In this document: positions 48,970 to 50,732 of the stretch, in pieces
Position numbering within the stretch: the first letter of the stretch is position 1
Layout of the letters: each line of letters starts with the position of its first letter
DNA from: Candidatus Porisulfidus sp. TsSOB
GTDB lineage: Bacteria; Pseudomonadota; Gammaproteobacteria; Poriferisulfidales; Poriferisulfidaceae
Reading direction: 5' to 3'
DNA: 64,000 bases
Assembly: GCA_002631715.1 (NCBI GenBank)
Contig: MRSX01000004.1
Span: 19,864-83,863, forward strand
Notes under the pieces: model-generated
What the model was told of the DNA's origin: nothing
What the model saw: only the letters and a program-made list of their open reading frames with translations
Database searches by the model: none
Translations under genes and position numbers: made by a program

Positions 48970-49692
48970 TCAGAGCTGGAATTCTTCTCCCAGGTAAGTC
49001 TCGCGCACTTGCGGGTTTTCTAGGATTTCGCCGGGTTCGCCCTCGGCGATGATGGAGCCTTCGGAGAGGATGTAGGCGCGGCGGCAGATACTGAGAGTCT
49101 CGCGCACATTGTGGTCGGTGATGATGATGCCGATGCCGCGCTCCTGCAATTGCTGGATGATCGACTTGATGTCGGCCACGTGCAGGGGGTCCACGCCGGC
49201 GAACGGTTCGTCCAGCAGGATGAAGGCGGGGTCCATCGCCAGCGCGCGGGCGATCTCGACCCGCCGGCGTTCTCCGCCCGACAGCGAGAATCCGCGGCTG
49301 TCACGGATCTCGGCAATAGAGAATTCCTCAAGAAGAAGCTCCAGGCGCGCTTCCCGCTCTTCCTTGGACAGGGACAATTGCTCAAGCACACCCAGGACGT
49401 TCTCCTCCACCGTCAGGCGGCGGAACACGGAAGGTTCCTGAGGGAGGTAGCCGATGCCCCGGCGGGCACGCTGGCTCATGGACAGCCCGGTGATGTCTTG
49501 GGTGTTCAGAAAGATCTGGCCCCGGTCGCAGGGCACCAGTCCCGTAATCATGTAGAAGCAGGTCGTCTTGCCCGCACCGTTCGGGCCAAGCAGCCCGACC
49601 ACCTCGTGGTCGCTTGCATGCAACTCGACCTCCGAGACGACCTGTCGGTCACGGTAGGACTTGCACAGGTCCTGCGCTTCGAGCGTGGCCAT
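48970..49692 (-). CDS. lptB: LPS export ABC ATPase
   Basis: [55 protein letters not shown]. Confidence 0.97.
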
Positions 49693-50732
49693 CAATCAGA
49701 GTCGGTTTTCAGGCGGATTCGCACCCGCTCGGAGGGCTTCCGGGTGACGGGAGTCTCCACGCGTTCCTCGTCGATCAGATAGACGATTTCATTTCCCGTG
49801 AAATGGTGTGCGTCGACGCGCAGATTGACGTCTTTCTTCAGAGTCGCCTTGCGCTGCGGAATCTGGTAGAAGATGCTGCCGGCATTTGCACGGAGCGGCT
49901 TCCCGGAATCGAGGATCTGGGTCCAACGAGCGTTGCCTTCGGCGTGCAGGGCCTGGACCCGGTCGCCTTCGGCGTGCACCGTGAGACGGTCGGCAAGCAG
50001 GACCATTTCGCCCTGCGTGGCACGCACGTTCCCATGGTAGACGCTGACTTCTTTCTGGGCGTCCCACTCCATCCGTTCCGCACTCAGGTCAAGCGTTTCC
50101 TCCGAATTGTCCGCGGCGTGCGCAGCGCTGAATGTTTCATCCAGGATTTTCTCCAGCAGTGCCTGCGTGGGCTTTTTCGTGGACGGTGGAAACTGGCGGG
50201 CCTGCACGTCTTGTTGCAGTTGGCCGCCCGAGCCGTCTAACTGGTAGTCCAGCCCGATGCCGCGCATCACCGCATGGGACTGGCTGAGCACGACCGCTTG
50301 CTCGCTGTAGACTCGCCCGTTTTCCGCGTCCAAGGTCAGCGATTCGCCGCGCATCAGGACCGGGGAATAGTCCGGGGGGTCGAGCAAAAGTTCTACGTTT
50401 TCATCTAGGGTGACCCGGGTCTCCCGGATTTCCCCGCGCTGTGCCGAGGCCGAGGAATTTTCGAACGCGGGGTCGAGCCAGTGTAAACGGGGGGTGTCGA
50501 GATTCAGGATTTCGCTGCCGGGATACTGGTCCAACCGTTCGGCGACGACTTCGTAGAGCAGTTCTCCTTTCAGATCCCGGATCCAGTGTTGTACCTGCAG
50601 GTAGCTGTTCTCGGGAACCCCTTTATCAGGAGCCAGGGCGGTTTCCTCCGGGGCTGGGGTTCGGGTCAGGGCCCACAGGCCAACGATGACGACCAGTGCC
50701 AGCAGCAGGGCCAGTGGCAGGCGGAGGTTCAC
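49692..50732 (-). CDS. Fused LptC-LptA LPS transport protein
   Basis: N-terminal TM plus LptC-like jellyroll, then LptA-like domain ([29 protein letters not shown]); one ORF between kdsC and lptB; GTG 50732 overlaps the kdsC stop. Confidence 0.85.

Follow-up and report, generated by a model that had tools for sequence, protein, structure and literature searches.

We describe here a gene that joins two proteins of the lipopolysaccharide (LPS) transport system, LptC and LptA, in Candidatus Porisulfidus sp. TsSOB (contig MRSX01000004.1, positions 19,864 to 83,863). This stretch of 64,000 nucleotides is referred to below as the window, and positions are counted from its first letter. LptC is a membrane-anchored protein that binds the LptF jellyroll and inserts its membrane helix between LptF and LptG. 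LptA is a separate, soluble protein whose groove carries LPS and whose C-terminal edge binds the N-terminal domain of LptD, and the two proteins are joined head to tail in the periplasmic bridge. In the window, the positions of both genes are filled by one open reading frame (ORF) on the reverse strand (49692-50732; 346 amino acids, aa), as an initial annotation of this DNA had proposed, and the models for both domains score above their cut-offs. We refer to this gene as lptCA. It opens with GTG and ends in a stop codon at 49692-49694, which overlaps the start of the downstream gene lptB as TGATG. An in-frame GTG at 50756 would give a product of 354 aa; the start at 50732 is favoured because GAGG lies 5 nt upstream of it, because it overlaps the stop of the upstream gene kdsC as TAGTG, and because orthologues (L002, L004-L009) have ATG at the equivalent position. 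Residue numbers refer to the 346-aa form.

The lptCA product is a single polypeptide comprising an LptC-type anchor, a variable stalk, an LptC jellyroll, a 31-residue linker, an LptA jellyroll, and a C-terminal tail. The N-terminal transmembrane (TM) segment, an LptC-type signal anchor (aa 4-22; 50667-50723), is a hydrophobic predicted helix of 19 residues in which L9-L11, G18, L19, and W20 are conserved at 90% or more. The stalk that follows (aa 23-44; 50601-50666) is probably disordered, as judged from low model confidence, a high ratio of nonsynonymous to synonymous substitution rates (dN/dS), and low column identity, which reaches the minimum for the protein over aa 21-40 (0.64-0.67). In the region of the LptC jellyroll (aa 45-181; 50190-50600), the Pfam LptC model (PF06835) aligns to aa 9-179 over its positions 2-173 of 175, scoring 76.9 bits (cut-off 21), and the NCBIfam LptC equivalog TIGR04409 scores 86.2 bits (cut-off 38). 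The LptA jellyroll (aa 213-325; 49758-50096) is matched by the Pfam LptA/LptD_N model (PF03968) over aa 217-323 with 72.2 bits (cut-off 20.4) and by the NCBIfam LptA equivalog TIGR03002 with 94.2 bits (cut-off 71.7), and phmmer aligns this half to LptA structures of E. coli and Klebsiella at about 1e-8. The product thus belongs to both families by their curated cut-offs. A duplicated LptC or an LptD fragment was also considered as the second domain and ruled out, since the domain passes the LptA equivalog and its best structural matches are LptA. The tail (aa 326-346; 49695-49757) carries the conserved sequence ERVRIRL, with R336 invariant and R338-L341 conserved at 90% or more; stand-alone LptAs share a C-terminal RVRxxI motif with this tail, which is probably the edge strand offered to LptD. 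Gene position agrees with both identities, as lptCA lies between kdsC and lptB, where lptC is expected, in the window and 11 loci, and directly upstream of lptB, where lptA is expected, in the window and all loci. What the LptA half appears to lack is the cleavable Sec signal peptide and soluble release of a typical LptA: it has no start codon of its own, and the segment equivalent to a leader is low in hydrophobicity and has four mostly charged core positions. One member of the family is labelled by NCBI just as 'LptA'.

The predicted structure follows the same order. An AlphaFold2 model built on a 41-sequence alignment has a mean predicted local distance difference test (pLDDT) of 85.3 and a predicted template-modelling score (pTM) of 0.77. 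It places a helix at aa 4-22, a stalk at aa 24-44 (pLDDT < 50), strands over aa 47-180, helices at aa 190-198 and 201-204, strands over aa 214-319, and a tail of low confidence when the protein is modelled by itself; within the linker, confidence is lowest over aa 201-210 (pLDDT 64). With Foldseek, the LptC half matches 3my2 and 4b54 (target-relative template-modelling score, TM-score, 0.83), as well as the LptC chains 6mit_C and 9doq_C of LptB2FGC complexes, so that the predicted helix, the strands, and these matches together give the LptC layout of a single N-terminal anchor followed by a periplasmic beta-jellyroll. The LptA half has the OstA-type beta-jellyroll fold, matching 2r19_A at E 6.6e-9 (target-relative TM-score 0.79; root-mean-square deviation 1.5 Å over 116 columns). 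The pTM of the whole chain implies a defined arrangement of the two domains.

The fused architecture is common to a whole protein family. A word-index protein search returned 43 related clusters, 42 of which carry both domains and 40 of which are full-length (343-351 aa, at 42-96% identity); the remaining ones are fragments, among them entry P0042 with its visible frameshift. An exhaustive hidden Markov model (HMM) search of 1.84 billion representatives recovered eight representatives of the lptCA family at E < 1e-30 and yielded more distant fused members (P0044, P0045, P0047, and P0048), below which scores fall sharply to stand-alone LptAs at ~89 bits. About 45 clusters carry the fusion in total. 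At the level of genomes, lptCA occurs in nine species-representative loci, four of them on closed 'Ca. Porisulfidus' chromosomes (1.57-1.85 Mb) and the rest in sponge-derived metagenome-assembled genomes, and the clade that carries the fusion consists of sponge-associated Gammaproteobacteria, 'Ca. Porisulfidus' and its relatives. The window is 96% identical to isolate RHO3_bin_14. The gene order Na/Ca exchanger-kdsD-kdsC-lptCA-lptB is found in 11 of 11 loci, including the most distant one, which was reached via P0043.

The junction between the two domains is also supported by independent sequencing. It is crossed by contigs of five further DNA runs and by a metatranscriptome contig from a sponge (49975-50171), all with substitutions only, no indels, and an open frame, at the level of Logan contigs, in which rare variants may be hidden. 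Since the family is fused across its entire range of 42-96% identity, synteny is conserved, and independent runs are free of indels, we regard the fusion as old and real, and the initial annotation was right to prefer this over a lost stop codon. The competing explanation is that, in this assembly alone, a sequencing or assembly error, or a recent pseudogenizing mutation, caused a frameshift or the loss of the lptC stop. Two observations speak for such an event: the 50-nt overlap, in different frames, of lptC and lptA in the related lineage L012, where one indel could fuse them, and the existence of a frameshifted database entry (P0042). Against it stand about 45 clusters, from many studies, with matching architecture and length, four closed chromosomes among the sources, the indel-free contigs of the five DNA runs, and purifying selection on the linker and both domains. 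We exclude both an artefact and a recently lost stop codon, the residual chance of which is negligible.

In comparisons with L004, L008, and L010, lptCA diverges much faster than its neighbors. At L004 its product is 78% identical, against 96% for LptB and an MMPL protein and 90-92% for KdsD and KdsC, and at L010 it is 42% identical against 71% for LptB. Fast evolution is usual for both LptC and LptA.

The linker (aa 182-212; 50097-50189) begins with a proline-rich, mostly polar or basic segment (P182-K187) and continues through an amphipathic helix at about aa 190-204 and the motif A204-H205-A206 (50115-50123) to the acidic sequence ADNSEE. The initial annotation had described a 29-residue peptide of this region as a decayed signal peptide; the peptide was quoted exactly (residues 184-212), and it lies at 50097-50183 rather than at 50098-50190. 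Its derivation from a signal peptide is borne out by several comparisons. In alignment, mature E. coli LptA begins no more than one residue from the AHA-A boundary, and many of the alignments with stand-alone LptAs in the exhaustive search reach into the signal peptide, which faces residues 185-206 of the linker. With 83 stand-alone pre-LptAs and 18 fused proteins anchored on the first LptA strand, the alanines of the A-x-A motif fall at -10 (48%) and -8 (72%) in the stand-alone proteins and at -9 and -7 in the fused ones, the latter with His at -8. The stand-alone leaders are uncharged over -22 to -14, and the leucines of the fused proteins at -21, -20, -17, and -16 coincide with this hydrophobic core, while the core positions -19, -18, -15, and -14 are charged in 56-61% of the fused proteins versus at most 1% of the stand-alone pre-LptAs. 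The best 9-residue Kyte-Doolittle score rises from 0.69 in the window to 1.9-2.1 in the distant members P0045, P0047, and P0048, with a mean of 2.73 in 121 stand-alone leaders, and the leader of the stand-alone LptA P0051 itself ends in GAAHA before the first Ala of the mature protein. The shared register, the match between leucines and core, and the graded hydrophobicity therefore identify the linker as a former leader that is, judged by register, positionally homologous to the LptA signal peptide in the region upstream of the core, in the core leucines, and in the A-x-A site.

While the charged residues in the core are as the initial annotation described them, the notion of simple decay needs revising, as the segment is under purifying selection, predicted to be helical, and amphipathic. 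The dN/dS of the linker helix and A-x-A motif is 0.19-0.25, compared to 0.13-0.32 for the LptC jellyroll and 0.15-0.29 for the LptA jellyroll; the block of anchor and stalk (aa 2-44) has the highest value of any region, at 0.35-0.60. Column conservation in the linker equals that of both domains. The charged core positions recur in an i, i+1, i+4, i+5 pattern, with a mean hydrophobic moment of 0.42 in fused proteins versus 0.20 in stand-alone leaders and a mean hydrophobicity of 0.16 versus 0.60. Because of this low dN/dS, domain-like conservation, recurring charge pattern, and amphipathicity, the linker looks reused and not eroding, and the comparison indicates that the leader core has been converted from a membrane-spanning segment to an amphipathic helix.

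The conservation of the A-x-A motif raises the question of whether the chain serves as a precursor, cut at AHA-A by signal peptidase I or another periplasmic protease to free a soluble LptA and leave LptC with a helical tail. A204 and A206 are conserved at 98% and 100%, including in members with only 42% overall identity, the motif is no more than one residue away from where stand-alone LptA is actually cleaved, the low-confidence segment at aa 201-210 may be exposed, and the linkers of P0045, P0047, and P0048 reach the low end of hydrophobicity of real signal peptides. Signal peptidase I, however, needs a membrane-embedded hydrophobic core, and it is precisely four core positions that are so often charged in the fused proteins. 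The His at -2 from the putative cut (H205) is 93% conserved although the peptidase is indifferent to this position, which varies among L, H, F, W, and Q in stand-alone leaders. The site would also sit on the far side of the LptC jellyroll from the membrane, and the conserved amphipathic character of the helix points to a structural role. We therefore consider processing at this site improbable.

We instead favor, at a probability of roughly 0.75, a genuine and anciently fixed fusion of lptC with a complete, precursor-form lptA, the product of which most likely acts as an uncleaved, anchored two-jellyroll module linking LptB2FG to LptD. The LptA domain would have lost a usable export signal of its own, being exported only as a C-terminal extension of LptC behind the LptC signal anchor, and would stay attached to LptC. 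The two jellyrolls would stack head to tail, the C-terminal edge of LptC against the N-terminal edge of LptA, in the manner of the non-covalent E. coli complex, with the linker helix looping out beside the joint. The module would dock on the LptF jellyroll of LptB2FG at one end and, at the other, offer its conserved C-terminal ERVRIRL strand to the N-terminal jellyroll of LptD. The covalent tether would in this way replace a weak, micromolar LptC-LptA contact and provide at least one LptA per transporter. We hypothesize that the fusion originated through a small mutation that changed the frame or removed a stop codon at a place where the end of lptC adjoins or overlaps the start of lptA; L012 provides an example of such an overlap. 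Internal translation initiation as a source of free LptA was ruled out, as the linker DNA contains no in-frame ATG, GTG, or TTG and the product would have no export signal. A tethered mechanism appears workable, because LptB2FG and an engineered LptC-LptA fusion form a stable complex that delivers LPS to LptD in vitro in an ATP-dependent manner (Nat Commun 2025, PMC12065857), and because a monomeric, non-oligomerizing LptA is functional in vivo according to the passage of PMC7237710 that cites Laguri 2017.

The fused LptA need not be the only one in the cell. It is conceivable that a separate, canonical lptA encoded elsewhere performs or lengthens the bridging, in which case the fused LptA would be only its first unit and the stoichiometry would not be fixed. 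The crystal structures 2r19 and 2r1a show head-to-tail oligomerization of LptA, and the conserved C-terminal strand of the fused LptA could accept another LptA as well as LptD. Family-specific HMMs found the fused gene to be the only LptA- or LptC-like ORF in the 64-kb window and in the 10 kb flanking the gene on each side at 10 of the 11 loci (L011 was left out); the DNA searched thus amounted to 64 kb of this genome and, at each of those loci, the 20 kb surrounding the gene. Several points speak against a separate lptA. At each of the 11 loci, the fused gene takes up the slot upstream of lptB in which gammaproteobacterial lptA normally lies, genomes of 1.57-1.85 Mb are small, purifying selection acts strongly on the fused LptA domain (dN/dS as given above), and the same passage of PMC7237710 indicates that a single non-oligomerizing LptA suffices in E. 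coli. On balance, a second LptA seems unlikely, though it deserves more weight than cleavage.

Several considerations weigh against the tethered-module interpretation. The uncleaved state of the protein is deduced from features of its sequence, and the near-invariant A-x-A is also what would be expected of a retained peptidase site. The search for a free lptA covered the window and the flanks of 10 of the 11 loci, not complete genomes. The head-to-tail stacking and the position of the helix are modelled from pTM, secondary structure, and analogy with E. coli, and the fast divergence of lptCA weakens fine-scale inference. A stronger version of the interpretation, to which we would give even odds, is that the fused protein is the sole LptA and is never cleaved, so that the bridge would be a fixed LptF-LptC-LptA-LptD chain with one tethered LptA, and that the former signal-peptide helix has acquired a new role, such as clasping the joint between the LptC and LptA domains or gating the groove.

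The nearest known counterparts of the fused protein are LptC (YrbK) and LptA (YhbN) of E. coli, with which it shares the gene position in kdsD-kdsC-lptC-lptA-lptB, both NCBIfam equivalogs, two OstA-type beta-jellyrolls, the N-terminal anchor of LptC, and the C-terminal RVR strand of LptA. Unlike these, it is one polypeptide, its LptA part (only about 25% identical to E. coli LptA) appears to have no functional signal peptide and is presumably never free in the periplasm, and the reversible micromolar LptC-LptA contact, the target of thanatin, is replaced by a covalent link. It resembles the engineered E. coli fusion (PMC12065857), in which the C-terminus of LptC is likewise joined to LptA, showing that such an architecture can work; that protein is man-made with a designed joint and no leader, whereas lptCA is natural, fixed in a clade, and has a remodelled leader as a conserved helical linker. 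The N-terminal domain of LptD and the periplasmic domains of LptF and LptG also carry this jellyroll fold covalently on a membrane protein, and Foldseek finds LptD chains weakly (E ~5e-3 to 1e-2, target-normalized TM-score ~0.2). In those proteins the jellyroll sits on a beta-barrel or an ATP-binding cassette (ABC) permease, whereas lptCA encodes two tandem jellyrolls on a single-pass anchor. In the full-text literature that we could search, to which most subscription journals do not contribute, we found no natural LptC-LptA fusion, only engineered and two-hybrid ones.

Other fused ORFs do exist among protein sequences, as a look beyond the family established. P0054/P0163, P0075, and P0084 carry Pfam LptC followed by LptA/LptD_N in one chain of 312-361 aa, and they are unrelated to the lptCA family beyond these domains (~76-83 bits versus 260-550 bits). 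In P0054 and P0163 the signal-peptide region is deleted and the domains abut without any relic of a leader. A genome search with P0054 alone gave no match, and a search with a two-sequence alignment gave one relative of P0054/P0163, the 45% identical and unfused L012, in which lptC (4001-4579) and lptA (4530-5141) are separate genes and lptA has an intact leader. Their overlap illustrates how a small indel can create a fusion. As these fusions are unrelated beyond their domains and one has an unfused relative, fusion has arisen more than once and by different routes, and sequence comparison places independent LptC-LptA fusions in at least two other lineages. A further protein from the exhaustive search, P0081 (760 aa, outside the window), has four tandem LptA/LptD_N domains (Pfam 155 bits, four stretches) and may be a covalent LptA oligomer, another way to hard-wire the bridge.

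The neighboring genes lptB, kdsC, and kdsD lie on the same strand as lptCA. Downstream, lptB (48970-49695) encodes the ATPase of the LPS exporter (TIGR04406, 363.8 bits; cut-off 240). Apparent joints at the conserved ABC-ATPase motifs of lptB are regarded as cross-mapping of other ABC genes, not rearrangements. Upstream, kdsC, for 3-deoxy-D-manno-octulosonate (KDO)-8-phosphate phosphatase, was identified by TIGR01670 (140.7 bits; cut-off 106.95) and synteny, with a maximal ORF at 50732-51406; its true start probably lies near 51205, given that the first residue of the domain is aa 72. It is preceded by kdsD, for arabinose-5-phosphate isomerase (maximal ORF 51199-52338), which was identified through the L010 orthologue with Pfam SIS and CBS domains and by tblastn synteny at all loci. 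The two maximal ORFs overlap by ~200 nt and both have long Arg/Pro/Gly-rich N-terminal extensions before the domain; the true starts are probably internal, and the extensions resemble GC-rich read-through more than coding sequence.

Between lptB and rapZ (45106-45972) lies an opposite-strand island of two genes (46842-48894, forward strand), encoding an ankyrin-repeat protein of 293 aa, with a hydrophobic leader at its N-terminus, and a His/Lys-rich EF-hand protein of 346 aa. Its content differs among L001-L009, with extra ankyrin copies and with the EF-hand gene present or absent, and the distant locus L010 has no island, hpf-ptsN-rapZ coming directly after lptB. Repeat proteins resembling those of eukaryotes are typical of sponge symbionts. 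In Gammaproteobacteria rpoN normally follows lptB; it is not among the called genes of L010 (11101-13580), where hpf directly follows lptB. Elsewhere in the window is an outer-membrane biogenesis cluster of dxr (17931-19337), rseP (19334-20692), bamA (20696-23035), and lpxD (23598-24617). This cluster indicates that the symbiont has kept its machinery for lipid A and outer-membrane protein assembly, and with bamA and lpxD in the window and kdsC and kdsD adjoining lptCA, the organism makes an LPS outer membrane.

What is new here is a natural fused form of the known Lpt system; it reveals no new kind of machine, and its relevance to the Lpt field is moderate. The field still debates how many LptA units span the periplasm and whether the bridge is permanent or transient, and a lineage with long-term hard-wiring of LptA to LptC offers a natural experiment. 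It suggests that a free, diffusible pool of LptA is dispensable, at least in symbionts with small genomes. In practical terms, the fused protein is a ready-made, stabilized LptC-LptA unit for structural work on the complete bridge, and one without the dissociable LptC-LptA interface that thanatin-type peptides attack. The family also displays the stepwise conversion of a cleavable leader to a selected amphipathic linker. If the fused protein is indeed the sole and uncleaved LptA, it would prove in nature that outer-membrane biogenesis can be sustained by one permanently anchored LptA, and it would document the reuse of a signal peptide as a structural linker.

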